A stretch of 64,000 nt of DNA from Thermoplasmata archaeon (GTDB lineage Archaea; Thermoplasmatota; Thermoplasmata; Lutacidiplasmatales; UBA184), in contig JAKABH010000001.1 of NCBI GenBank assembly GCA_021801925.1, positions 7,964 through 71,963 of the forward strand. The letters run 5' to 3'. Positions 441 to 54,362 of the stretch are shown piece by piece. Position 1 is the stretch's first letter. Each line of letters begins with the position of its first letter. The position numbers and the translations under genes were made by a program. The notes under the pieces are model-generated. The model made no database searches. It had not been told where the DNA came from and saw only the letters and a list, made by a program, of their open reading frames with translations.

Positions 441-1703
441 GTGGACGCTGCGACCGCGACCCTCATCACCGTTGGGCTGTTTTTCTTCTTCCTGATCCTG
501 ATCGTCTTGCTCTACCGGGCGATCTACACGCTGCAGCCGTACCAGAACGGCATCCAGACGCTCTACGGATCGTACAAGCGGATCCTCAACCCGGGGTTCA
601 ACGTCGTGAGCCCGCTGTCGACGGTGATGAAGATCGACCTCCGTACCCAGGTCCTGGAGGTCCCCCGCCAGGAGGTCATCACCAAGGACAACTCCCCGAC
701 GAACGTCGATGCGATCATCTACATCAAGGTCGTCGACGCCCCGAAGGCGATCTTCCAGGTTCAGGACTACCACGTCGCCACGGTCGCCCTCGCCCAGACG
801 ACCCTGCGGTCGATCATCGGCGACATGGAGCTCGACGAGGTGCTCTACAACCGCGAGCGGATCAACACCCGGCTCCGGGACATCCTCGACGAGGCGACCG
901 ACAAGTGGGGCGTCCGCGTCGACGCGGTCGAGATCAAGGAGGTCGACCCGGTCGGTCCGGTCAAGGCGGCGATGGAGGAGCAGACCTCCGCCGAACGCCA
1001 GCGGCGGGCCGCGGTCCTGCGCGCGGACGGTGAGAAGCGGAGTGCGATCTTGGTCGCCGAGGGGAACAAACGGTCGCGCATCCTGCAGGCGGAGGGGGTC
1101 CGGCAATCCCAGATCCTCGAGGCCGAGGGGGCCCGGGTGGCGACGATCCTCGAGGCGCAGGGAGAGGCCCAGCGCCTGCGGATCCTCGCGCTCGGTGCCG
1201 GCGTCCTCGACTCGAAGGCGCTGACCGTCCTCTCGCTGGACACCGTCTCGAACCTGGGCAACGGACAAGCGACGAAGATCCTTTTCCCGTTCGAATTCTC
1301 GCGGATCGTGGAAGGGGCCGCCGAGTACCTTGGCGCGGGCCGGCAGGTCCCCGATCGCCCGCTCAACAGCCTATCCGAGCTCGAACACCAGGTCGGCACG
1401 ATGGACGAGATCTTGGGCCCGATCCCGAAGCAGGACGAGCTCATGAGCGAGATCCGCTCCATCGAGGAGGAGATCAAGGCCGAGACGGACGAGTCGACCG
1501 CCATGGCCGTCGGCGCCAAGTCCAAGGATTCCACGATCCCGGGTCTCCCCCAGCCGGACGTGGTCGCCCCGCCGCCCCCAGTGTCCCCCCCCGCGGGCCA
1601 CCCGGGCGCGGCGGCGCACCTGGTCCCCCCTCCGCCCCCGCCCGCATCGCCGGGCGCCCCCACGACCCCGGCGCGGCGACCCCCACCCCCCGAAGGGGCC
1701 TGA
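441..1703 (+). CDS. SPFH/band-7 (stomatin/prohibitin-like) membrane protein with Pro-rich C-terminal tail
   Basis: N-terminal TM (LITVGLFFFFLILIVLL), SPFH core (RTQVLEVPRQEVITKDN...VRVDAVEIKEVDP), coiled-coil EQTSAERQRRAAVLRAEGEKRS repeats, and a C-terminal PPPP low-complexity region. Confidence 0.9.
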   Translation: MDAATATLITVGLFFFFLILIVLLYRAIYTLQPYQNGIQTLYGSYKRILNPGFNVVSPLSTVMKIDLRTQVLEVPRQEVITKDNSPTNVDAIIYIKVVDAPKAIFQVQDYHVATVALAQTTLRSIIGDMELDEVLYNRERINTRLRDILDEATDKWGVRVDAVEIKEVDPVGPVKAAMEEQTSAERQRRAAVLRADGEKRSAILVAEGNKRSRILQAEGVRQSQILEAEGARVATILEAQGEAQRLRILALGAGVLDSKALTVLSLDTVSNLGNGQATKILFPFEFSRIVEGAAEYLGAGRQVPDRPLNSLSELEHQVGTMDEILGPIPKQDELMSEIRSIEEEIKAETDESTAMAVGAKSKDSTIPGLPQPDVVAPPPPVSPPAGHPGAAAHLVPPPPPPASPGAPTTPARRPPPPEGA

Positions 1704-1755: not shown

Positions 1756-2550
1756 ATGGCATCCAACGTGCGGGTCGAGCGACGCGGAGCGGTCGAGGAA
1801 GTGCGGATCGCGCGCGCGGATCGGCTGAACGCGCTCGACGTGCCGACGTTCCGCGAGGTGCGCGCCGCGCTCCAGTCGGCCGCCCTCGACCGGGACGTCC
1901 GGTGCGTGCTGCTGACCGGCGACGGGCGGGCGTTTTCCGCCGGCGGGGACGTCGCCGCCATGGACGAGGCCCGGCAGCGGGGCGATCTGCCGAGACTGTT
2001 CCACGAACTCACCGGCGAACAGGAGTCGGCCGTCCGCGAAGTCGTCGGGATGCGGAAGCCGGTCGTCGCCGCCTTGCCCGGCGTCGCGGCCGGCGGCGGC
2101 TTCTCCCTGGCGCTCGCCGCCGACTGGAGGATCGGCTCCGAAGCGGCGGCGTTCGTGCCGGCGTTCCCCGGACTCGGCGCGGTCCCGGACGGGGGCCTTA
2201 CCTACTTCCTGCCCCACTACGTGGGGATCGGGCTCGCCCAGGAGATCCTGCTCACCAACGCCCGCCTGTCGGCCGACAGGGCGCGGGAGCTAGGGCTGCT
2301 GCACGAGATCGTCCCGTCGGCCGAACTCGGGGCGCGCGCCTGGGCGCGGGCGACAGAGTTCGCCGCCGGCCCGACGTTCGCCATCGGCTGGATGAAGCGG
2401 CTGATGCTCTCCGCCTTCTCGGGGAGCCTGGAATCGCAGATGATGCTCGAACGGCGGGGGGCGGTCGAGGCGGCCCGCGGCGCCGAACTGCCCGAGGGGA
2501 TCCGGGCGTTCCGGGAGAAGCGCCGGCCGACGTTCCCGCCCCCGCCGTGA
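1756..2550 (+). CDS. Enoyl-CoA hydratase/isomerase (crotonase) family protein
   Basis: Crotonase-fold motifs RADRLNALD, LLTGDGRAFSAGGDV, and the oxyanion-hole GGG FSLALAAD. Confidence 0.85.
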   Translation: MASNVRVERRGAVEEVRIARADRLNALDVPTFREVRAALQSAALDRDVRCVLLTGDGRAFSAGGDVAAMDEARQRGDLPRLFHELTGEQESAVREVVGMRKPVVAALPGVAAGGGFSLALAADWRIGSEAAAFVPAFPGLGAVPDGGLTYFLPHYVGIGLAQEILLTNARLSADRARELGLLHEIVPSAELGARAWARATEFAAGPTFAIGWMKRLMLSAFSGSLESQMMLERRGAVEAARGAELPEGIRAFREKRRPTFPPPP

Positions 2551-2557
2551 CGTTCGG

Positions 2558-3904
2558 CTATCGATCGGGCGTCGCCGAAAGCGGGGCGAGCGTGGGTCCC
2601 TCCCCGCCGAACGGGCGCACGATCCACGCCTCGAGCCGCCCCCGGACCGTCGGCCACTCCGGGGCGAGGATGCTGAAGTACTCGGAGGTGCGGTAGGTCT
2701 CCCCCTCGAGGCGCACGTGCTCCCGCAGCGCCCCCTCGGGCACGGCGCCGAGGCGCCGGATCGCCCGCTGCGAGCGCTCGTTCCGCCGGTCGGCCTTCAG
2801 CTGCACCCGATGGACCCGCTCCGTCTCGAACGCGTGGCGGAGCAGGAGGTACTTCGCCTCCGTGTTCACGGGCGTCCTCCAGACGGAGGGGTGGAGCCAG
2901 GTCCCGATCTCGACGCCGCGGTCGCCGCGACGGATGTCGAGATATCGGATCGTCCCGACCGTGCGGGGCGGGTCGCCGACCTGGACCACGAACGGGAGAA
3001 GCTCGCCCCGCGCCCGCTCCGCGAGAAACTCCTCCACGAGCCGGCGCATGGCGTCGGGGGAGTCCCCGTGCCGGATCCGCATGAACTCCCAGATCGCGGG
3101 ATCGGCGCCGGCGTCGATCAGCCCGGCCAGGTGCGAGGCCGCGAGCGGGACGAGCCGGACCCATCGTCCCCGGAGCTCGACGGCGTCGCGGAACGAGGTG
3201 GCGGGTAGTACCGTGACCGGTGGTCGGTCGCTCCCCGGCCCGACCGATCCGTCCGGGGCGGCCGGGGGGTAGGAGGAGGCCGCCCTCGGCGGGCGGGGGT
3301 TCCAGGGCCGTTCGAGCGCCGAGTCGAGCCGGGCGCGGGCGGCGGGCCACTCCGCCTCGAGCACGGCGAAGTAGGCGGTCGAGCGGTACGTGCCGTCGGC
3401 CCGCAGGGAATCGTCCCGCAACGTCGCCTCGCGGACGGCCCCGAGCCGCTCGATCGAGCGGAGGGCATCGAGGTCCCGTTCGTCGGTCCGGAACTGTACC
3501 CGGTGCGCCCGCTCCGTTTCGAACGCGTGGCCGAGCAGCAGCCGCGAAACTTCGATCTCCGCCGGCGAACCCTCCTCGGCCGGATCGAAGAGCGTCTCCC
3601 CGATCTCGACGACCCCGTTCGGACGGTCGATCGGACCGAAGCCGGTCGCGCCCAGGATCCGACCTCCCGTGCGGGAGCAAATCGCAACGACCTGGGCCCG
3701 TCCGGCGGCCTGTTCGGCCAGGACCGCCCGTATCGCCTCCGCGGCCCCGGCGCCCGTCCGACCGAAGCGGATCCAACCGGTCCGGACGATAGCGGGACCG
3801 CGCAGCAGGGCCGCCAACGGCTCGGCATGGTCGACCGACAACGGGACCAATTCCACGAACCGGCCGGTCAGGGCAAGCGGGGAGCGGAAGCTCGATTCGT
3901 CCAC
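2558..3904 (-). CDS. Tandem-duplicated GNAT (RimJ/RimL-like) N-acetyltransferase, two complete GNAT domains in one polypeptide
   Basis: Two repeats of the same architecture (L.LRPL..D...L...L.DP.V...W...LLLRHAFETERVHRVQ...N.RS.RA.ERLG), each ~200 aa. Confidence 0.75.
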   Translation of the reverse strand: MDESSFRSPLALTGRFVELVPLSVDHAEPLAALLRGPAIVRTGWIRFGRTGAGAAEAIRAVLAEQAAGRAQVVAICSRTGGRILGATGFGPIDRPNGVVEIGETLFDPAEEGSPAEIEVSRLLLGHAFETERAHRVQFRTDERDLDALRSIERLGAVREATLRDDSLRADGTYRSTAYFAVLEAEWPAARARLDSALERPWNPRPPRAASSYPPAAPDGSVGPGSDRPPVTVLPATSFRDAVELRGRWVRLVPLAASHLAGLIDAGADPAIWEFMRIRHGDSPDAMRRLVEEFLAERARGELLPFVVQVGDPPRTVGTIRYLDIRRGDRGVEIGTWLHPSVWRTPVNTEAKYLLLRHAFETERVHRVQLKADRRNERSQRAIRRLGAVPEGALREHVRLEGETYRTSEYFSILAPEWPTVRGRLEAWIVRPFGGEGPTLAPLSATPDR

Positions 3905-4000
3905 CCGGCCCCGAACGGGCGGGCGGCTAAAGCCCGGCGCCCCGGTCGCCGTCGAATCCGGGGGGCGTCACCGTCAGGAACCGAAGCGAATCCGGCAGGG

Positions 4001-4010
4001 CTTAAATAAC
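4001..4010 (+). promoter_or_regulatory. Candidate BRE/TATA (CTTAAATAAC) for the nuo operon
   Basis: Only AT-rich element in the 145-bp divergent intergenic region, ~45 nt upstream of the nuoA start. Confidence 0.45.
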
Positions 4011-4049
4011 GTGGAAGAGTCGCACGGGACGCTAGCGGTCTAGCCGGAG

Positions 4050-4424
4050 GTGGAGGCAGTGGAAGCAGGGGTCACAACCTTCCTGGTGTTCGTCGGGATC
4101 GCGGCCGTCTTCGGCGTTGGATCGATCGTCGCCAACCGGACCCTCGGCGCTCCCCCCCGCCGGTCGTACCTGCAGCGGACGACGTACGAATGCGGCGAGG
4201 AGGCGGAGGGGGAGGCGCAGATCGACTTCCCCACCCAGCACTACACGTTCGCGATCGTTTTCGTGGCGGTCGACGTCCTCGGCTTTCTGCTCGCCCTCTG
4301 GGGGCTCACCTTCCGGGGCGTCAACTCGAGCTGGTACCCGGTCTTCATCGCGCTGGCCTTCACCGCCCTAGCGGTCACGGGAATTTACTACGCGCTGAGC
4401 GGCGAAAAGCGGTGGGTCGTATGA
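4050..4424 (+). CDS. nuoA: NADH-quinone oxidoreductase subunit A
   Basis: 3-TM small subunit with NuoA/ND3 signature ([19 protein letters not shown]...[11 protein letters not shown]). Confidence 0.9.
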
Positions 4425-5044
4425 GCGCCCCGCCCGCCCCCCCGATGCCGCGAACCGCCGGATCGGCCGCCGAGGCGTATCGGCTCGAGGGGGAGCTCCC
4501 GATGGTCGAGCAGCCCGCGGTGCCGTTCGTCGAGATCGAGACGGTCCGGGCCCGCGAGTTCATCCCCGCCGCCAAGGAGGCGTTCGGCGCGCTGATCGCC
4601 GAGCAGGGGCAGGCGAAGCTGATCCGCCCGACGTTCAACTGGGCCGGCCGAAACTCGCTGTTCCCCCTCCACTGGGGCCTCGCCTGCTGCGCCATCGAGT
4701 TTGCCAGCGCCTTCTCCGCCCGATGGGACTCGGAGCGGTTCGGGATCGTCCCCCGTTCCTCCCCCCGGCAATGCGACCTCATGATCGTCAACGGCACCGT
4801 GACATGGAAGGTCGCCCACAAGCTCATCACCCTCTACGAACAGATGCCCGAACCGAAGTGGGTGATCGCGATGGGGAACTGCGCCACCGGCGGCGGGCCG
4901 TTCCGGACCGCCTACTCGGTCGTCCCCGGCGTCGACAAGCTCGTCCCCGTCGACGTCTACATCGCGGGCTGCCCGCCCCGGCCCGAGGCGATGATCGACG
5001 GGATCCTCCGACTGGAAGAACTGATCCGGGAGCGCCGGGAGTAG
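4421..5044 (+). CDS. nuoB: NADH-quinone oxidoreductase subunit B (N2 [4Fe-4S] cluster subunit)
   Basis: [13 protein letters not shown]...[11 protein letters not shown]...IAGCPPRPE. Start set at the ATG overlapping the nuoA stop (ATGA); the upstream Gly/Arg-rich part of the track ORF is rejected. Confidence 0.9.
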
Positions 5045-5073
5045 GGGCCGCGGCGCCGGCGCGGGGAGCGGAG

Positions 5074-5550
5074 ATGCAGTCGGACGACGTGGCCCGAACG
5101 GTCGCCGCCCAGATCGGCGAGCGCTTCCTCGGATTGGAGCCGTTTCCCCGGACCGCCGGGCGGCTCCGGTTCCGCTCGGAGGCGGCGCTGCCGCTCTTTC
5201 ACACCGTCAAGGAGCAGCTCGGCTTCCACCACCTGTCGATGGTCGGCGGGATCGACTGGGTGACGCATCGCGAGGTCTTCTACGTCGTCTGGTCGGACGA
5301 TCGCCGCCAGTACCTGCTCCTCTCCGCCGATCTTCCCGCCGCCGCACCGCACATCGAGTCGGCCGCCTCGGTCTGGCCGGCGGCGAACTGGCACGAGCGG
5401 GAGACGTGGGAGCTCGTCGACATCCAGTTCGACCACCACCCGGACCTGCGGCACCTCCTCCTCCCCGACGGCTACGAGGCCCACCCGCTGCTCCGCTCGT
5501 TCCAACTCCACGAGCCGGAGGAACTGGAGGTGAAGCAGCGCAGTGTCTGA
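5074..5550 (+). CDS. nuoC: NADH-quinone oxidoreductase subunit C (30-kDa subunit)
   Basis: NuoC/Nqo5 core (HLSMVGGIDW...FYVVWSDDRRQYLLL...ANWHERETWEL). Confidence 0.85.
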   Translation: MQSDDVARTVAAQIGERFLGLEPFPRTAGRLRFRSEAALPLFHTVKEQLGFHHLSMVGGIDWVTHREVFYVVWSDDRRQYLLLSADLPAAAPHIESAASVWPAANWHERETWELVDIQFDHHPDLRHLLLPDGYEAHPLLRSFQLHEPEELEVKQRSV

Positions 5551-6688
5551 GATGTGGATCAACATGGGGCCCCAGCACCCCATGACGCACGGCCTCTGGA
5601 ACCTCCGCGTGAAGATCGACGGGGAGCTCATCACCGACTGCGACCCCGAGATGGGCTATCTGCACCGCGGGATCGAGAAGATCAGCGAGGACCGGCACTA
5701 CAACGAGGTGATCACCCTCATGGACCGGACCTGCTACGTCGCGGGATTCGCGTGGGAGCACCTCTACGTCCTCGCCGCGGAGGAGGCGCTCCACATCCAG
5801 CCGCCCGAGCGGGCGGAGTACCTCCGCACCCTCTGCGAGGAGTTCCAGCGGATCGGCTCCCACCTCATGTGGTACGCCGCGTTCGTCCAGGACATCGGGC
5901 TGATGAGCCCGTTCCTCTACGGCATGCGCGACCGCGACCTGGTCCTCGACCTCTTCCAGAGCTACACCGGGGCGCGCATGACCTACGAGTACATGCGGGT
6001 CGGCGGGGTGCGCAACGACCTCCCGCCCGGCTTCACGGGCCACGCCCGCAAGGTCCTGGACTGGCTCAGCGACCGCTTCGTCGAATACGACCGGCTCTGC
6101 CTCGGCTCCGACATCTTCCGAAAGCGCTGCGACGGGCTGGGGGTCCTCTCCGCGGCCGACTGCGTCGCGACCGGCGTCACCGGGCCGATGCTCCGCTCCG
6201 CCGGCGTGAAGCGGGACGTGCGACGGGACCGGCCCTACGCGGCCTACCCGCAGCTCGACTTCGACGTCGCCGTCGCGGACGGGGCCGACGTGACCGCCCG
6301 CTACCTCGTGCGGATGGAGGAGATGCGGCAGTCGGTCCGCCTCCTCCGCCAGGTCCTGGACTGGCTCGACCACCACCCGGGCCCGGTCCTCGCGGATCGC
6401 CTCCCCCGGTGGCTCGGCGCCCCGTACGCCCCGGTCGGCAAGGAGGAGTACGTCCTCAAGCGGAACTACCCCAAGGGGGTCGGCTTCTCCTCCATCGAGG
6501 AGCCTCACGGGGAGGCGCAGGCCTACGTGGTGAACGAGGGATCCGAGCATCCGTACCGCGTGAAGTTCCGCTCCCCCGTCTTCGCGAACCTCTCCGCGAC
6601 GCGCCACTACCTGGTCGGCTACCGCGTCGCCGACATCCCGCCGATCATGGGCAGCGTCGACATCTGCGTCGGGGAGGTCGACCGGTAG
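5543..6688 (+). CDS. nuoD: NADH-quinone oxidoreductase subunit D (49-kDa subunit)
   Basis: MWINMGPQHP, GYLHRGIEK, and the C-terminal RSPVFANL. Start GTG 5543 or ATG 5552. Confidence 0.92.
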   Translation: MSEMWINMGPQHPMTHGLWNLRVKIDGELITDCDPEMGYLHRGIEKISEDRHYNEVITLMDRTCYVAGFAWEHLYVLAAEEALHIQPPERAEYLRTLCEEFQRIGSHLMWYAAFVQDIGLMSPFLYGMRDRDLVLDLFQSYTGARMTYEYMRVGGVRNDLPPGFTGHARKVLDWLSDRFVEYDRLCLGSDIFRKRCDGLGVLSAADCVATGVTGPMLRSAGVKRDVRRDRPYAAYPQLDFDVAVADGADVTARYLVRMEEMRQSVRLLRQVLDWLDHHPGPVLADRLPRWLGAPYAPVGKEEYVLKRNYPKGVGFSSIEEPHGEAQAYVVNEGSEHPYRVKFRSPVFANLSATRHYLVGYRVADIPPIMGSVDICVGEVDR

Positions 6689-14486: not shown

Positions 14487-15587
14487 ATGGAGCGCGTCGA
14501 CGTGATCGTCGTCGGCGCCGGGCCGGCCGGATCGTCCGCCGCCCGGGCGGCGGCGGAAGGGGGCGCCCGCACCCTGCTCCTCGACCATCGGACCGAGCTC
14601 GGGCACCCGGTGCAGTGCGGGGAGTTCGTCCCGACCCCCGCGGAGCTCGCCGACCTGTTCGACTGCCCCGACCTCATCCAACGGGCGTTCGATCTCCCGC
14701 CGGAGACGATCCTGCGGTCGACCCGCTACATGTCGTGCGTCTCCCCCTACGGGCACCGGTTCCGCTTTCCCCTCGCGGGGGCGACCGTCTCGCGCCGGTC
14801 GTTCGACAAGGCGCTCGCCTACCGGGCCGAGGGGGCGGGGGCGGAACTGCGGTTCCCCCTCGGGGTCACCCGGGTCCAGGGGTCGACCGTCCGGACCGCG
14901 GACGGGGAGGAGATCGAGGGGCGGGTCGTCATCGGCGCCGACGGGCCGCTGTCGATCGTCGCCCGTTCGGTCGGCCAGCCCCGCCCGCGGACCCTCTACC
15001 GGATGATCACCGCCACCGTCGACGGGGGACTGGACGACGAGATCGACCTCTTCTTCGGCCGGGACGCCCCCGGCGGATACGCCTGGGCGTTCCCGCGGGC
15101 CCACGACCTGAACGTGGGGCTCGGGGTGACGCGGATCCCCCGCGGCCGCTCGCTCGGCGGGCTGCTCGACCGGTTCCTCGCCCACCGGGGGTTCGGCCCC
15201 GCCCGGGAGCCGACCCGCTGGTGGGTCCCGATCGGGACCCCGCCCGACTCCCTCGTGCACGGGCCGATCCTCCTCGCGGGCGATGCGGCGCAGCTCGTCA
15301 TGGCGACGAACGGCGGCGGCATCCCGACGGCGATGCTCAGCGGCTGGCTCGCCGGGGAGGCGGCGGCGCGGACGATCCGGGACGGGACGCCGCTCGCCGC
15401 CTACGACACGGCGTGGCGCTCGGCGCTCTACGGACCCCTCGCCCGGGCGGCGGCGATCCAGGCGTGGAGCGACCCGTATACCGTCTTCGACCCCGTCCTG
15501 GCCCTCGGAATGCGCTATATCGGTGCGCGCGGTCTCGACGCCATGATGCGGCTGCGCTGGCCCGGGCGCCGGGGGGTCGAGGCATGA
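14487..15587 (+). CDS. FAD-dependent geranylgeranyl reductase family protein (digeranylgeranylglycerophospholipid/polyprenyl reductase)
   Basis: GxGxxG FAD motif (VIVVGAGPAGSSAARAAAEGG) and GGR-family core (HPVQCGEFVP, GADGPLSIVARSVG, GYAWAFPR, LLAGDAAQLV). Starts 4 nt after the nuoN stop. Confidence 0.85.
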   Translation: MERVDVIVVGAGPAGSSAARAAAEGGARTLLLDHRTELGHPVQCGEFVPTPAELADLFDCPDLIQRAFDLPPETILRSTRYMSCVSPYGHRFRFPLAGATVSRRSFDKALAYRAEGAGAELRFPLGVTRVQGSTVRTADGEEIEGRVVIGADGPLSIVARSVGQPRPRTLYRMITATVDGGLDDEIDLFFGRDAPGGYAWAFPRAHDLNVGLGVTRIPRGRSLGGLLDRFLAHRGFGPAREPTRWWVPIGTPPDSLVHGPILLAGDAAQLVMATNGGGIPTAMLSGWLAGEAAARTIRDGTPLAAYDTAWRSALYGPLARAAAIQAWSDPYTVFDPVLALGMRYIGARGLDAMMRLRWPGRRGVEA

Positions 15588-16633
15588 GCGCCGCCCGGAC
15601 CCCGGTCGATGCCTCCCTCGAGACGATCGTCCAGCAGACGCTGCGCAACGCCGCCGCCGACTCCCTCGTCGAGCTGGCCCCGACGCTGGTGCGCGATCTC
15701 ACCGAGATCGACTGGCGCGTCGCCGAGGTCCTGGGCTCGACCTACGCGCAGCTCACCGAGGCGGCGCGCTACGCCTGCTCGACCGGCGGCAAGCGGGTCC
15801 GCCCGCTCCTGATGGCCGTCGCCCACCGGGCGCTCGGGTCGGAGACGACGCAACCGATCCACTCCCTCGCGGCGGCGTTCCAGCTGATCCACACGGCGAC
15901 GCTCGTCCACGACGACGTGATCGACCACGCCGAGACCCGACGGGGCCGTCCGTCGATGCCGCGCGCCTTCGGCATCCCGCTCGCGATCGTCTCGGGCGAC
16001 TACCTCTTCGTCCGCGCCTTCGAGCTCGCCGCGGAGTACCCCCGCTCGATCATCATGCGGTGCGGGGAGGCGTGCGCCGACCTGGTCGAGGGGGAGGTCC
16101 TCCAGGAGGCGTCCCGGTTCGATCTCTCCAGCGGCCGCGACCACTACTTCCGGGTGATCGAGCGGAAGACGGCGGCGATCATCGCCGCGGCGCTCACGTC
16201 GGTCGCGGAGATCGCCGCCGCGGGCCCCGCGGTCGTCGACGCCCTCCAGGGATACGGGCGGGCCCTGGGGCTCGCCTTCCAGATCCGGGACGATCTCCTC
16301 GACGTCTACGGCGACCCCGACCTCCTGGGAAAGCCGCTCTTCGGGGACCTCCGGGAGGGGAACCCGACCCTCCTCTCCCTCGAGACGTATGCCCGGCTCG
16401 ACCCCCGCCACCAGGCGGAGTTCGAGCGGCTGTTCCAGCTCCGCCGCAAGCGGGCGAAGCACCTCCTGCGGCTCCGCGACTTGACCCAGATGACGGACGC
16501 GTCCGACGTCGTCGCCCGCGAGGCGACCGACTGGGTCGACCGCGGGATCCACTGCCTCGAGGCGCTGCCGAACGGGCCGTACCGCCGCCTATTGGAACAG
16601 CTCGCCCGCGGCGCGGCCGCGCGGCGGTTCTAG
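15584..16633 (+). CDS. idsA: Polyprenyl synthetase (GGPP/longer-chain prenyl diphosphate synthase, IdsA-like)
   Basis: FARM and SARM aspartate motifs (LIHTATLVHDDVIDHAETRRG and FQIRDDLLDVYGD). ATGA overlap with the GGR stop. Confidence 0.88.
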   Translation: MSAARTPVDASLETIVQQTLRNAAADSLVELAPTLVRDLTEIDWRVAEVLGSTYAQLTEAARYACSTGGKRVRPLLMAVAHRALGSETTQPIHSLAAAFQLIHTATLVHDDVIDHAETRRGRPSMPRAFGIPLAIVSGDYLFVRAFELAAEYPRSIIMRCGEACADLVEGEVLQEASRFDLSSGRDHYFRVIERKTAAIIAAALTSVAEIAAAGPAVVDALQGYGRALGLAFQIRDDLLDVYGDPDLLGKPLFGDLREGNPTLLSLETYARLDPRHQAEFERLFQLRRKRAKHLLRLRDLTQMTDASDVVAREATDWVDRGIHCLEALPNGPYRRLLEQLARGAAARRF

Positions 16634-16696
16634 CGGCCGCGACTTGAGGGAAAACTACAAGTCCCCTCCCCCGGATCGACCCGCCGGTTCGGGGCC

Positions 16697-17146
16697 ATGG
16701 GCAGCACATCGACCGCGGGGGGCGGCGCCGCCCCCGTCTCCTTCGACCGCCTCCCCGCGCCGTGGCGGCCCGAGTCGACGCGCCCGAAGCTGCCGATCGG
16801 CGTCGCCGTCGTCTCGGTGCTGATCAGCGGCCTCGCCATCGTCCTCATCCTGGGCGGGGCGCTCTACCTCCTGGACCAGTTCGGCTCGAATGCGATCCCG
16901 TCGGCCCTCGACCTGTTCCCGTCGATCGATCTGCTGGGCTCGGCGATCCTCCTGCTCCTCGGGGTCGCCCTCCTCGCCATCGCCACCGCCCTCTGGCGCC
17001 AGGAGACGTGGGCCCTCTGGACGACCCTCGTCCTGGTCTTCGGCGCCACGGTCTACCTGTTCTTCACCGGGTCGATCACCGTCCTCTTCGTCCTGATGAT
17101 CGTCCTGTTCGTCTACCTGCTCGCCTGCCGCCGGTACTTCTATTGA
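16697..17146 (+). CDS. Hypothetical small membrane protein (4 predicted TM helices)
   Basis: Hydrophobic segments (VAVVSVLISGLAIVLILGGALYLL, AILLLLGVALLAIATALW, LVLVFGATVYLFF, VLFVLMIVLFVYLLA). No recognisable domain. Confidence 0.55.
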   Translation: MGSTSTAGGGAAPVSFDRLPAPWRPESTRPKLPIGVAVVSVLISGLAIVLILGGALYLLDQFGSNAIPSALDLFPSIDLLGSAILLLLGVALLAIATALWRQETWALWTTLVLVFGATVYLFFTGSITVLFVLMIVLFVYLLACRRYFY

Positions 17147-17958
17147 CCCGCTTCCTGTTGGCCCAGCTCGCCCCGATCCCGGGCGATCCCGCGGCGAACA
17201 TCGACCGCCTCTCCGCCCTGCTCGACGGTCGCGAGGGGGAGGTCGCGATCGCCCCGGAGCTGTTCCTCTCGGGGTACCGGATCGGCGACCGGTTCCATCA
17301 GATCGCGCTGCGACCGGGCGACGGGCCGTGGAGCGCGCTCCAGCGCCTGGCCCGCGCCCACGGGACGACCGTGATCGCCGGGGCGCCGATCGCCTCCCCC
17401 GAGCGGAAGGGGGAGCTCCAGAATGCGGCGCTCGTCGTCGCCCCGTCGGGGGACGTCACGATCCAGGGGAAGCGGTATCTGCCCACGTTCGGGCCGTTCG
17501 AGGAGGGGGTGCCGTTCACCCCGAGCGACCGGAGCCGGCCCCTTCCCCTCGGAGCCCATCGGGCCGGGATCGCGATCTGCTACGACACGTTCTTCCCCGA
17601 GGTGTTCCGCGGACTCGCCCTCGCCGGCGCCGACCTCCTCGTCGTCCTCTCCGCCTCGCCGGTGACGAGCGGGCCGCTCTTCGAGAAGCTCCTACCGGCG
17701 CGGGCGATCGAGAACGGGCTGCCCGTCGTCTACGTCAACCGCGTCGGGGTCGAGGACGGGATCGTCTTCGGGGGCGGCTCGGGGGCGTGGGACCCCCGGG
17801 GGGAGCGGCGGCCGACGGAGGAGATCCCGGACCCCCGCCTTCACCCGGAGGAGCGCCTCCTCGGGGTCGAGATCGACCTCGAGGAGCCGGCCCGCTGGCG
17901 GCCGTTCCGACCGGTGCTGCGGGACGTCGCCCAGCGGCCCCCGCCGTCCGAGCCGTGA
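17143..17958 (+). CDS. Carbon-nitrogen hydrolase (nitrilase/CN-hydrolase superfamily) protein
   Basis: Catalytic triad context (E in [11 protein letters not shown] in GKRYLPTF, C in [11 protein letters not shown]). TTG start overlapping the upstream stop is inferred. Confidence 0.75.
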
Positions 17959-32448: not shown

Positions 32449-32969
32449 GCCGCCTCCCGACGAGCGGCGAGCGACGCGAGCTGCTGCTTGTAGGCCTCGA
32501 GCGGGCGCGGAAGCGGCTTAGGCAGGTGGCTGCCGCCGAGCCGGTCCGCCGTCGGGAACCCTTCCTCCCCGTGGGGGATGTCGACCCCCGCGTCGAGAAG
32601 TCCCTTCAGCGCCGCCGACAGGCGGCCGCCGGCGGTCGGACGCCGGACGCCGAGATCGAGGACCGCCGCCTCGGTACCGGATGCCTTCGCCCGGAGCCCC
32701 GCCAGGTAGGCGGTGAGGTAGGCCGCGGGCGTCGAGGAGAGGCTCGTCGCGGGGAAGGCGATCCCCCCGAGCTCGCCGGAATCGGCCATCGCCAGGACCC
32801 GGTCGCCGGTGGGGTCGAAGTCGACGAGCGAGACCCGCACCCGGCGGGCGGAGAGACGCACGACCGCCCGCGGGCGGCCGGACTGCAACAGCTTGCGGCG
32901 GACCCGGTAATCGGTCCGGCCCTCGCGGCGGCGCCGGAAGTGGACGCGGTAGCGCGGGCCGTCGCTCAT
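32445..32969 (-). CDS. rpl18: 50S ribosomal protein L18 (uL18)
   Basis: [22 protein letters not shown]. Confidence 0.9.
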
Positions 32970-33427
32970 GCCTTCGCCTCCGGTACGTGGCCGGCGAGGC
33001 GCAGGTTCTGGAGGAGGTGCGCCCGGCTGCGGAACATGCCGCCCTTGGCGCGACGGTAGAACTCGCGGTAGACCGCCGGCGGGATCTTCTTCCCGTCCCG
33101 CAGCTCGCGCAGGAGCGCCCGCTGGGCTCGGATGCGCCGCATCCACCGGTCCTTGCGGGGAAGACGGGAGGCCGGGGAGCCGCGGCGGGAGCCGGGTCCC
33201 TGGTGTCGGCCGCGGGCGACCTCGGCGGCGTGCCGCCGGGCCCGGGCCCGCGACGTCCCCTGGATCGGATGGCGGCGAATGACCCCGGCCTTGATCGCGC
33301 CCCGGACGTCGTTCCGCGTGACCGCGTCGGCGAGATCCTCCTGGCTGGTCGGATCGAGGAAGACGCGGCCCTCCCCGCACTTCAGGAGATCGGCGGCGAG
33401 GCGGCGCTGGTTCGAAAGGTCCGGCAT
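32966..33427 (-). CDS. rpl19e: 50S ribosomal protein L19e (eL19)
   Basis: MPDLSNQRRLAADLLKCGEGRVFLDP. Confidence 0.9.
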   Translation of the reverse strand: MPDLSNQRRLAADLLKCGEGRVFLDPTSQEDLADAVTRNDVRGAIKAGVIRRHPIQGTSRARARRHAAEVARGRHQGPGSRRGSPASRLPRKDRWMRRIRAQRALLRELRDGKKIPPAVYREFYRRAKGGMFRSRAHLLQNLRLAGHVPEAKA

Positions 33428-41031: not shown

Positions 41032-41861
41032 GCGCTCGTTCCTCCCGTGAGGCGGGCTTCGAGCCGACGAAGGGCCGCGTGGGAGAAGAGGGTCAACCGA
41101 CCGGCATCGCCGCCCGGGGCGAGATGCTCGGTCGACAGGCGGTCGGCCGGCACGATGTCGATCCCCGAGAGGTTGCGGAAGCCGCGCGCGCGGTCCGCCC
41201 GGCTCGTGACGAGCAGCACGCTGCGGGGCACGCGGCGGCCGCGGCCGCGCCGACGGGCCCGTCCGGCCTTCAGCGTGACGCCGTCCCGCGCCCGCTCGAC
41301 ATCTTCCCAGAGGTGAAGGCGTTCGAGCAGGGCGCGCGCATCCTGGGCGGTGCCGATCTCCTCGATCGGGTCGTCCACGACGACCGGCAGATGGAGCTTC
41401 TCGGGGACGGCATGGCCCCGGGCCCCGAGCAGCTCCGCCTCCCGGGTCGCGGCGAGCGCGGAGGCGAACGCCAGTCGGGCCTCGCGGCGGTTGATCTTCT
41501 TCGTCCAGATCCGGTCGACCCGGGGGGGATGCGCCTGGCCGCCGCCGACGGTGTTCGGGGCCTGGGCGCCGCGGTTCGACTCCATGAGGCGCGGGGTTCG
41601 AGAGACGCCGCGGCCCTTCCCCGACCACTCCACCGAGTGGCGGCGCCCGGCCGTCAGCGAGGTGCCGTACGGTTGGCGTCGGTGGGATTGGGCGGCGACG
41701 ACCGCCCGCCGGACCAGATCCGGCCGCAGCGGTGCCGAGAACTCGATCGGAAGCAGGACCGTCGTCGAGTGGGGCGTCCCGTCGACCCCCACGAGATGGA
41801 CCCGGTGGTGCGGCGCCGCATGTTCCGCGCCCCCGACCGGGGCGCCGGCCGATTCTGCCAT
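41028..41861 (-). CDS. rpl4: 50S ribosomal protein L4 (uL4)
   Basis: uL4 core (HLVGVDGTPHSTTVLLPIEFSAPLRPDLVRRAVVAAQSHRRQPYG). Confidence 0.9.
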   Translation of the reverse strand: MAESAGAPVGGAEHAAPHHRVHLVGVDGTPHSTTVLLPIEFSAPLRPDLVRRAVVAAQSHRRQPYGTSLTAGRRHSVEWSGKGRGVSRTPRLMESNRGAQAPNTVGGGQAHPPRVDRIWTKKINRREARLAFASALAATREAELLGARGHAVPEKLHLPVVVDDPIEEIGTAQDARALLERLHLWEDVERARDGVTLKAGRARRRGRGRRVPRSVLLVTSRADRARGFRNLSGIDIVPADRLSTEHLAPGGDAGRLTLFSHAALRRLEARLTGGTSA

Positions 41862-46702: not shown

Positions 46703-47338
46703 TTGCGGCGGGCGTTCGGGAAGCCGCACTTCCACGTCATCGGGCTGGACGACGGCGCGTTCCGCCGCGGGGACCGATGGGCGCCGGTCGCCGCCGTCCT
46801 GCTCGCCGTGCCGGCGCGCGTCGAGGCGATCCGGATCGGGCGGGTGCGCGTCGACGGAACGGACGCCGCGGAGGTCCTCGCGGCGCTCGTGAGCCGCCTC
46901 CCCGGCCGGGCGAGCGCGCGGGCGGTCCTGCTCGACGGGGCGGTCGTCGGCGGCTTCAACGTCGTCGACCTCGACAGTCTTCACCGCGCGCTCGGCGTTC
47001 CCGTCGTCGCCGTGACGGCCCGGGCGCCCGATTTCGGCGCGATCCGGACGGCGCTCGAGCGCGGGTTCCCCCGCGACGCGGAGCGGCGGTACCGGCTTCT
47101 TTCCGCGCACCGGCTCACCGCCGTTCCCGGCGCCGCCTCCCCCGTGCGGATCGCGGTCGTCGGCTGCCTCCGTGCGGAGGCGGCGGCGCTCGTGCGCCGC
47201 ACGATCGTCGAGGGCCACACCCCCGAGCCGATCCGCCTCGCCCACCTCGTCGCCTCGGCGGCGGCGCCCCCCTTGCCCTCGACACGAACCGTTAAGGAGC
47301 CCGTCCGCCGTCGTCCCCGGCGCGGGCCTGTAGCTTAG
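46703..47338 (+). CDS. DUF99-family protein (UPF0215, endonuclease-V-like fold)
   Basis: FHVIGLDDGAF...RIGRVRVDGTDAAEVLAALVSRL...LLDGAVVGGFNVVDLDSLHRALGVPVVAV. TTG start inferred; the 3' end overlaps the tRNA-Arg 5' end. Confidence 0.6.
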   Translation: MRRAFGKPHFHVIGLDDGAFRRGDRWAPVAAVLLAVPARVEAIRIGRVRVDGTDAAEVLAALVSRLPGRASARAVLLDGAVVGGFNVVDLDSLHRALGVPVVAVTARAPDFGAIRTALERGFPRDAERRYRLLSAHRLTAVPGAASPVRIAVVGCLRAEAAALVRRTIVEGHTPEPIRLAHLVASAAAPPLPSTRTVKEPVRRRPRRGPVA

Positions 47339-47430
47339 CTCGGACGAAGCACTGGCCTTCTAAGCCAGGGAACTCGGGTTCAAAGGCCGGGGCGGCCCCC
47401 CCGCCCCGGCAGAGACTCCCGACAGGCCCG
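47324..47430 (+). tRNA. tRNA-Arg (anticodon TCT) with a putative 32-nt intron in the T-loop (between positions 59 and 60)
   Basis: Acceptor GGGCCTG/CAGGCCC (7 bp), D-stem GCTT/AAGC, anticodon stem CTGGC/GCCAG with loop CTTCTAA, T-stem TCGGG/CCCGA, T-loop TTCAAA[...]T. The insertion 47385-47416 (GGCCGGGGCGGCCCCCCCGCCCCGGCAGAGAC) contains a 10-bp GC hairpin. No encoded CCA. Confidence 0.6.
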
Positions 47431-53299: not shown

Positions 53300-53977
53300 C
53301 TACAGTGCTTCGAGACGTTCCAAGAGCGCCGGCGCCTGCAGCGGCGTCGACAGCAGGGGGATGTTCTCCACCTCCGAGAGGCGGATCGCGAGCGGGTCGA
53401 CCCGGCCCGGCGCCGCGAAGACGACCGCCGCCGGCTTGAGCGGATGGGCGCGGATGGCGACCATCGGGGAGCGGCCGAACTTCACGTTGGAGAAGATCAA
53501 CGCCCGCTGGGTCGTCCAGCCGTAGACCTCGACGAACCGCGAGGCGTCGATGGAGAGGATCGCCCGCGGCGCGTCGAGCACGGTGAAGCCGTGGAGGTCG
53601 CGGTGGAGGTCGACGCGGCTCACGGGGCGGGCGTCGAGCTGGTCCGCGAGCGACTTCAGCGGGATCGCGACGGCGAACTCCCGCATCCCGAGGATCCCGT
53701 CGGAGTGGGCCCGTACGCCGAGCCGCTGCCCGACCTTGCTGCCGTGCTGGGCGTCGACGGCGAGGAGGGCATCGACATACCGCCGGATGAAGCCGGCGCC
53801 CGGGCTCGCCCGCCGCTCCGACTCGTAGTCGGAGATCACCGACGGCACCGTCGTGAGGTGCTGGGCGAGGTCCCGCTGCGAGATGCCGAAATCCTCGCGC
53901 CACTTGCGGAGCGTGCGCCCCGGGTGGGGGGACAGGACGACCTCCCCCGCGATCTTCTCGCGGATCTCCGCGTCCAC
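53300..53977 (-). CDS. XRE-family HTH transcriptional regulator with ~140-aa C-terminal effector domain
   Basis: HTH_XRE ([34 protein letters not shown]). GTG start. Directly upstream of the HMGS-thiolase-DUF35 module on the same strand. Confidence 0.6.
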
Positions 53978-54070: not shown

Positions 54071-54175
54071 TGGACTGGGCGAGATTCCCCGGCCCGGGGC
54101 GTGCGGCCCCGGGACCCTTTGAACTCGCGACCTCTACCTTGCCAAGGTAGCGATCTTCCGCTGATCTACCAGCCC
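54071..54175 (-). tRNA. tRNA-Ala (anticodon GGC) with G3:U70 identity pair and a putative 33-nt T-loop intron
   Basis: Minus-strand sequence GGGCTGGTAGATCAGCGGAAGATCGCTACCTTGGCAAGGTAGAGGTCGCGAGTTCAAA[GGGTCCCGGGGCCGCACGCCCCGGGCCGGGGAA]TCTCGCCCAGTCCA. All four stems pair, anticodon loop is TTGGCAA, and the acceptor 3' strand CCAGTCC gives the G3:U70 wobble. Confidence 0.6.
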
Positions 54176-54362
54176 ACCGGTCGGTCGGACGCCCGGTGCA
54201 GGATAAAATCTTCTCGGCCGCCGCCCCCGCCCGGACGGCCTCGGGTGGCCGCGGCCCCGGGGCGCTCCGTCCGGGGCCGCATCGGGGGCCGCTCCCGCCG
54301 ACCGGCCCTCGACCGGACGCTCCGGCCAAACCCTTATCCCTCGCCGCCGGCTCCGCCGGCCG

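Follow-up and report, generated by a model that had tools for sequence, protein, structure and literature searches.

Probable protein-spliced introns in the T-loop, at position 59/60, of tRNA genes from a GC-rich Thermoplasmata lineage

We analyzed a stretch of 64,000 nucleotides from a Thermoplasmata archaeon (assembly GCA_021801925.1, contig JAKABH010000001.1), hereafter called the window, in which the genes for tRNA-Arg(UCU) and tRNA-Ala(GGC) each carry a short, structured insert in the T-loop. Our results indicate that both inserts are very probably archaeal tRNA introns, spliced by proteins at a non-canonical site, 59/60, and that they belong to a system found throughout the clade. The 59/60 site itself is known; the case is of interest for its host lineage and for the number of tRNA species affected.

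The tRNA-Arg(UCU) gene occupies positions 47324 to 47430 of the forward strand (107 nt, no encoded CCA, discriminator G at 47430) and is called by ARAGORN and by Rfam, whose match also starts at 47324. From this position it reads GGGCCTG TA GCTT AGCTCGGACGA AAGC A CTGGC CTTCTAA GCCAG GGAAC TCGGG TTCAAA, then the insert GGCCGGGGCGGCCCCCCCGCCCCGGCAGAGAC, and then T CCCGA CAGGCCC G. The acceptor stem of the gene has 7 bp and its anticodon arm has U33; a D-arm, a variable loop and the T-stem TCGGG/CCCGA are also present. An earlier sequence-only reading of this DNA had described a tRNA-Arg with a TCT anticodon that is canonical in all its arms except the T-loop, where 32 nt with a perfect 10-bp GC hairpin stand between TTCAAA and residue 60; the locus is exactly as claimed, and the fold bears out the insert and its hairpin. 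The 5' exon (47324 to 47384, tRNA positions 1-59) holds the anticodon at 47359-47361 and the 5' strand of the T-stem at 47374-47378. The 3' exon (47417 to 47430) consists of U60, the 3' strand of the T-stem (47418-47422), the 3' strand of the acceptor stem and G73. Between the exons lies the 32-nt intron (47385 to 47416), delimited by sequence, fold and scanner, most of which forms the hairpin at 47386 to 47410 (strands GCCGGGGCGG/CCGCCCCGGC, 5-nt loop). The full 107-nt locus folds at z = -3.5 relative to shuffled sequences, and in silico removal of 47385-47416 leaves a 75-nt cloverleaf that both ARAGORN and the pattern-free scanner used in our surveys call tRNA-Arg(tct).

The tRNA-Ala(GGC) gene lies on the reverse strand at 54071 to 54175 (105 nt; G3:U70, anticodon at 54143-54141, discriminator A at 54071) and was recognized from sequence, Rfam and the scanner. 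Its 58-nt 5' exon (54118 to 54175) and its 3' exon (54071 to 54084) flank the intron GGGTCCCGGGGCCGCACGCCCCGGGCCGGGGAA (54085 to 54117). The gene folds at z = -3.9, and its spliced product, 73 nt, is called tRNA-Ala(ggc) by the scanner and ARAGORN. The sequence-only reading had given this gene an insert of the same length at the same place. The place is right, as the insert again follows TTCAAA, but the length is 33 nt rather than 32 because the hairpin (54116-54091) has one extra bulged U. At a permissive threshold (E<=1), Rfam returned these two tRNAs as the only RNA matches in the window, so both of its tRNA genes carry the insert. The same search found no ribozyme core of a group I or group II intron, which would span hundreds of nucleotides; the inserts are 32-33 nt long.

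Next, we asked how widely the inserts are conserved. We scanned 185,579 species-representative genomes for tRNA-Arg with a pattern built from the D-arm, the anticodon loop and the start of the T-loop; as the insert was not required, intron-less genes could match too. The scan returned tRNA-Arg(UCU) from four other Thermoplasmata species, and all four carry an insert of 31-32 nt at the same site, with near-identical exons and an insert sequence that has diverged yet stays self-complementary. An intron-less copy of this tRNA-Arg, which could have spoken against the intron, was not found among these genomes. The nearest species-level relatives identified in this way are Thermoplasmata metagenome-assembled genomes (MAGs), among them AcS1-3 and AcS13-54, which belong to Ca. 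Lutacidiplasmatales (formerly the terrestrial miscellaneous euryarchaeotal group, TMEG; ~69% GC, acidic forest soil; PMC9287336). The window (~72% GC) encodes topoisomerase VI subunit B, an archaeal SecY, a Nuo operon and an HMG-CoA synthase/thiolase pair, and its NuoH has an identical copy on contigs of several uncultured-archaeon MAGs; GCA_027315755.1 carries this NuoH. A haloarchaeal origin, which the GC content and DUF7504 might suggest, was rejected in view of the species-level relatives. Judging from its gene content, the host is clearly an archaeon, and it is probably an uncultured, GC-rich soil member of the Thermoplasmata, order Lutacidiplasmatales.

Metagenome contigs were surveyed in two ways. 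A generic junction pattern, which itself imposes part of the 3'-end consensus, gave 106 matches, and 79 of them became normal tRNAs once the insert was removed at 59/60: Arg(UCU) 32, Ala(GGC) 25, His 6, Met 5, Asn 4, Leu(UAG) 2 and three Ser species 5. A perfect 5-bp T-stem was present in all 79, whereas 16 of the remaining 27 had poor stems, as expected of chance matches. The second survey combined the pattern-free scanner with an ARAGORN call on the spliced product. It listed 102 candidate sites, recovered both window genes and added tRNA-Gln(CUG) as well as further Arg and Ala genes. We rejected three of its sites, in which hairpin and tail are missing (L078 Gly, the sole tRNA-Gly call; L090 Asn; L103 Ser-gga; L numbers denote our loci). 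This leaves ~99 sites and ten confirmed tRNA species with an insert at 59/60. The expectation that related genomes would hold more such tRNAs was thus borne out, and the earlier view that a chance hairpin is unlikely gains from the conservation of the insert across species and across many tRNA species. On several contigs the Arg and Ala genes occur together, as in the window.

Uninterrupted tRNAs are present on the same or related contigs, and presence can be reciprocal: on some contigs Asn(GUU) has the intron and stands beside an uninterrupted Met(CAU), while on L087 Met(CAU) has the intron and Asn(GUU) does not. The contigs compared were L053, L096, L106 and L113 versus L050, L087 and L090. 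In this comparison the uninterrupted genes have the T-loop TTCGAAT (G57), whereas intron-bearing genes, except tRNA-Gln, have TTCAAA before the intron and T after it (A57). In related Thermoplasmatota MAGs of 63-66% GC, Arg(UCU), 75 nt long, and Ser(GCU) occur without interruption, and the T-loop of this Ser(GCU) is exactly TTCAAAT, the loop that excision at 59/60 would create. The uninterrupted Arg(UCU), Ser(GCU) and Met(CAU) of related MAGs have the length and T-loop expected of spliced products. This lineage-specific presence and absence at one site suggests recent gain or loss.

We then compared the junctions with the motif, called bulge-helix-bulge (BHB), that archaeal splicing endonucleases recognize, taking the reference geometry from PMC4090602. 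In the layout that fits, the T-stem is the outer helix, A58, A59 and the first intron nucleotide form the 5' bulge, U54-A57 face intron positions -3 to -6 (counted from the intron 3' end) in the central helix, positions -2 and -1 with U60 form the 3' bulge, and the inner helix begins with intron nucleotide 2 paired to -7. In tRNA-Arg the proposed central helix comprises 47379 to 47382 and AGAG at 47411 to 47414 (U·G, U-A, C-G, A·A), a strand placed by pairing and alignment. The 5' bulge, A58 A59 and G, is at 47383 to 47385 and the 3' bulge, A C and U60, at 47415 to 47417; the predicted splice sites are 47384/47385, by analogy with canonical BHB geometry (PMC4090602), and 47416/47417. In tRNA-Ala, GGGG (54090-54087) faces U54-A57 (U·G, U·G, C-G, A·G), and the predicted 3' bulge, A A and U60, is at 54086-54084.

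This 3-4-3 layout was evaluated on 83 distinct sequences of T-arm plus insert, 18 of them independent of the search pattern. It fits all 83, and every slid register scores far lower. Paired cells amount to 89.8%, compared with 72.2% in shuffles (0/500 reach the observed value), and the covariation score is 0.48 versus 0.18. The T-stem is 100% paired, with four of its five pairs covarying, and the hairpin base is 89.8% paired, with covariation at five of its six pairs; the pair i3:-8, for example, is CG in 34, GC in 30 and GU in 12. RNAalifold, run unguided, found the T-stem and the hairpin (from column pair 13:41), which in tRNA-Arg is also supported by the single-sequence fold and by covariation. 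The central pairs 54:-3, 55:-4 and 56:-5 are standard in 83/83 sequences, which the pattern imposes in part, and in 18/18 pattern-independent ones. A58, A59 and U60 are invariant, and intron position -2 is A in 83/83. The fourth central position, 57:-6, is non-standard in 76/83, but all four distinct tRNA-Gln sequences have G57 and form G-C there, and three tRNA-His form A-U. This switch is covariation at exactly the predicted place. Consequently, the four Gln and three His sequences form a strict hBHBh' motif with four standard central pairs, and the window genes do not: with three standard pairs and, at the fourth position, A·A or A·G, their BHB is near-strict. In the window genes a BHB-compatible layout at the junctions stands, and a strict four-pair central helix does not. 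The sequence-only reading had pointed to a lineage whose T-loop introns are processed by the splicing endonuclease, a proposal supported by the BHB fit, the ten tRNA species and the insert kept in four orthologues; the splicing itself we infer.

Alternatively, the inserts could be retained, giving mature tRNAs with an extra hairpin arm that projects from the T-loop between 59 and 60, which we consider very improbable. The hairpin is indeed very stable. Nucleotides 59 and 60 of a tRNA lie outside the five-nucleotide T-loop motif, and an insertion there might be tolerated sterically. However, retention leaves unexplained why the intron 3' end is complementary to U54-C56 in 83/83 sequences and has a C opposite G57, and why there are two symmetric unpaired stretches of 3 nt with an invariant A at -2. 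The central pairing would also compete with the fold of the mature T-loop, and in related MAGs uninterrupted tRNAs with the same anticodons function without such an arm.

Variation of the insert by lineage would also suit small palindromic mobile or repeat elements, or scars of integration, in genes that are decaying as pseudogenes. tRNA genes are hotspots for mobile DNA, and in one relative a tRNA-Arg is split by an IS630-type element next to a low-GC island. Even so, we regard this explanation as extremely unlikely. Apart from what pairing with the T-loop demands, the inserts have no sequence in common; those of the window have no terminal repeats, no target duplications at 59/60 and no signature of a miniature inverted-repeat transposable element (MITE) or insertion sequence (IS); and an identical phosphodiester bond is interrupted in ten tRNA species. 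Moreover, the exons are under strict purifying selection while the insert covaries, the promoter boxes are conserved, and an intron-less copy of this tRNA-Arg was not found in the species-representative genomes. As far as intron gain by transposition in Thermoproteales is covered by PMC3239211, where it is cited, the present introns resemble it in their lineage-specific presence or absence at one site (Asn versus Met; Arg, Ser), but differ in that the common intron ends are here explained by T-loop pairing.

The split gene of that relative lies on L010 (6381-7559, reverse strand), where an IS630-type element of ~1.2 kb, with a DDE_3 transposase, the inverted ends CTGACCACTG…CCGGTGTCAG and a TA duplication, interrupts the variable loop of a tRNA-Arg(UCU) copy. 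The intact allele is on L059, and the T-loop introns of the two are identical. Directly downstream of the split gene, the low-GC island (~2400-6340, ~57% versus 70-72% GC) is bounded by the direct repeat TCCCGACAGGCCCGCT, whose start coincides exactly with the first nucleotide of the 3' exon; before the far repeat copy stands GAGCTTCAAGCG, similar to a degenerate, intron-less T-arm. The island has the look of an integrated element with an attachment core that stops at the boundary of the intron, and its two large open reading frames had no Pfam match.

For the splicing endonuclease (EndA), an exhaustive HMMER search and a further profile search reached the EndAs of GC-rich Thermoplasmatota, which are of the two-repeat α'2 type (305-390 aa). 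The six EndA loci examined lie on contigs without T-loop-intron tRNAs, BLAST revealed no overlap between four EndA loci (L116-L119) and intron-bearing contigs, and two EndA-bearing lineages have an uninterrupted Arg(UCU) or Ser(GCU). In GC-rich Thermoplasmatota (L116, L118-L124) the endA neighbourhood is conserved and consists of a cysteinyl-tRNA synthetase gene (CysRS, opposite strand), a gene for a ~351-aa protein, endA, a gene for an LTD-domain protein, a small open reading frame, and genes for a class-I aminoacyl-tRNA synthetase (tRNA-synt_1b) and a transglutaminase-like protein. The ~351-aa protein had no confident Pfam match, and the stop codon of its gene overlaps the endA start.

Splicing in another register (for example 58/59, with the 3' cut shifted to match), or by an enzyme of relaxed specificity or a novel kind, has in our view only a slim chance of being correct. 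With an A-rich junction, some alternative pairs of cuts leave a 7-nt T-loop that is just as valid, A·G is the usual fourth central pair, and a D-loop intron and a two-intron tRNA-Leu (described below) form a pattern that goes with broad-specificity enzymes in other archaea (PMC3239211). Against this, if the cut follows the second bulge nucleotide, the 3-4-3 layout predicts 59/60 for both strands at once, the uninterrupted Ser(GCU) of a relative has exactly TTCAAAT, and the EndAs recovered from GC-rich Thermoplasmatota are ordinary two-repeat α'2 enzymes, none of them linked to an intron-bearing contig.

Several observations weigh against protein-spliced introns at 59/60. The proposed central helix is weak and was predicted neither by single-sequence folding nor by RNAalifold. 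The 3'-end consensus of the metagenome sequences owes part of its uniformity to the search pattern, and the fourth central position is A·A in the window tRNA-Arg and A·G, the usual form, in the window tRNA-Ala. Using tblastn with the M. jannaschii EndA (PDB 1A79), we found no endA in the window or in 0.88 Mb of contigs, and the best 120 matches of two homologue searches for the EndA of the intron-bearing lineage came from low-GC or unrelated lineages. Finally, the EndA of T. acidophilum is an α'2 enzyme of narrow specificity (PMC6379350).

A speculative possibility, which we put forward tentatively, is that an order-level clade of Thermoplasmatota fills T-loops, and at least one D-loop site, with introns despite an ordinary, narrow α'2 EndA, by copying the BHB geometry of the anticodon arm onto the T-arm, or else that its EndA has an unrecognised change that broadens specificity. 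The first reading, if true, would run counter to the textbook association of non-canonical introns with broad-specificity (αβ)2 or ε2 enzymes, and "arm mimicry" would be a route of intron spread.

Our model for splicing at 59/60 is as follows. The T-arm of the precursor would fold into the T-stem, a 3-nt bulge, a central helix of four positions, a second 3-nt bulge and the inner hairpin. From this layout and its conserved pairing we infer that EndA would cut between A59 and intron nucleotide 1 and between the last intron nucleotide and U60, that is at 47384/47385 and 47416/47417 in tRNA-Arg and at 54118/54117 and 54085/54084 in tRNA-Ala. An RtcB-type ligase would then join the exons, and across the junction the spliced 75-nt tRNA-Arg(UCU) would read ...GGGUUCAAA joined to UCCCGA.... 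The T-loop could take shape, receive its modifications and dock on the D-loop only after splicing. Since the intron prevents this T-loop/D-loop elbow, splicing probably precedes the elbow-dependent steps, which makes the order of pre-tRNA processing testable. CCA would be added afterwards, because the genes do not encode it.

The proposed geometry closely follows that of canonical introns at 37/38, as in the tRNA-Trp of Haloferax volcanii: a 5-bp stem carries a 7-nt loop, the intron follows loop nucleotide 6, the pairing of loop nucleotides 1-4 with the intron 3' end gives the central helix, and the outer helix is provided by the stem (PMC4090602). As the T-arm has the same 5-bp stem and 7-nt loop as the anticodon arm, an insert after loop nucleotide 6 is the counterpart of 37/38. 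Unlike canonical introns, those described here lie in the T-arm and have their pairing partner in the universally conserved UUC(R), not in the anticodon, which is why the intron 3' end is nearly the same (CGGRRAV) across tRNA species.

Position 59/60 has been documented as a BHB intron site before, and it overlaps the major insertion sites of archaea with (αβ)2 enzymes; in ARMAN-2, pre-tRNA-Cys(GCA) is interrupted at 59/60 and pre-tRNA-Pro(GGG) at both 53/54 and 59/60 (PMC3239211, PMC4090602). Our introns resemble those of ARMAN-2 and of Crenarchaeota/Thermoproteales in their T-loop insertion point, their short structured intron and the BHB logic of the T-arm (PMC3239211, PMC4090602), and in that several tRNA species are affected per genome, some with two introns. 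In contrast to ARMAN-2 (DPANN) and the Crenarchaeota, the host belongs to a GC-rich soil and peat clade of Thermoplasmata, probably Lutacidiplasmatales. Nearly all of its cases fall at one site with a uniform, near-strict architecture, whereas introns of ARMAN-2 and Thermoproteales are scattered over many positions, often with relaxed hBH/HBh' motifs and ε2 or (αβ)2 enzymes; relatives of the present clade have α'2. According to reviews, introns of Euryarchaeota with α4 or α'2 endonucleases occur only singly and at the canonical position; M. kandleri and ARMAN-2, the exceptions known so far, have enzymes of other types (PMC4090602, PMC4033280). The description of Ca. Lutacidiplasmatales makes no mention of tRNA introns (PMC9287336), and the incomplete literature that we searched held no report of non-canonical tRNA introns in Thermoplasmata. 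The clade, with 59/60 introns in at least ten tRNA species, a D-loop intron and a two-intron tRNA-Leu, offers a further test of the proposed co-evolution of intron position and enzyme type, especially informative if its enzyme proves to be α'2.

The tRNA-Leu(UAG) in question lies directly downstream of the T-loop-intron tRNA-Gln(CUG) on L019 (~1240-1440, forward strand), L068, L072, L085 and L108. It has two inserts, one at 59/60 and one of ~24-30 nt in the D-loop, so the clade has more than one non-canonical site and some of its tRNAs have two introns. The D-loop insert lies between ...CTCGGCCAA and CGAGG... and consists of a hairpin followed by GG(C/U)C A(G/A). The hairpins differ wholly in sequence, yet each of them pairs. 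This insert shows a 3-4-3 layout of its own, in which GGCC pairs with GG(C/U)C and the bulges are AA plus the first insert nucleotide (N) and AR plus the C that follows the insert.

Both window genes are preceded by a conserved box, a putative promoter element. For tRNA-Arg the candidate archaeal TATA-like box is TTAAGG (47292 to 47297, forward strand, -32 to -27); 36 distinct tRNA-Arg(UCU) genes share a conserved upstream A/T-rich box at around -30 to -26, against a background of ~70% GC. For tRNA-Ala the candidate is TTTTAT (54203 to 54208, reverse strand, -33 to -28), and GTTTATCC, after purine-rich GGAAGG, is conserved upstream of 25 distinct tRNA-Ala(GGC) genes. More generally, A/T-rich boxes lie ~25-34 nt upstream of the tRNA genes (L006-L115) with a purine-rich stretch before them, as expected for archaeal promoters with a TATA box and a transcription factor B recognition element (BRE). 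These boxes could serve to define the promoter consensus of this uncultured clade.

The inserts also affect annotation. ARAGORN calls the Arg gene but sets its 3' end at 47401; Rfam calls both genes just above threshold, falsely building the 3' half of Arg from the insert and skipping the T-arm of Ala. The sequence-only reading had expected standard tRNAscan runs to miss or mis-call both genes. Both ARAGORN and Rfam mis-called them, but neither gene is missed outright, as Rfam calls both, and the statement was too strong for tRNAscan, since the archaeal mode of tRNAscan-SE 2.0 screens every candidate for BHB introns at any position (PMC8450103). Such genes may therefore already be correct, without comment, in some annotations, while the truncation and misalignment by ARAGORN and Rfam can lead to wrong tRNA complements for such MAGs where no intron-aware archaeal mode is applied.

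With its intron option, ARAGORN also called tRNAs with 'introns' of 125-2900 nt in the window (41392-41595, 32699-33104, 53415-53972 and 15093-17356), which we rejected as artefacts without Rfam support at E<=1. Similar long-'intron' calls on L001-L005 and other high-GC contigs, again without Rfam support, were rejected likewise, and the 'Arg(CCG)' genes that it reported in L010, L081 and L065 are spurious. The junction pattern also matched a sequence on L052 (~1799-1836), L079 and L095 that has a perfect 5-bp 'T-stem' and nothing tRNA-like upstream; this is probably a chance match within a conserved gene.

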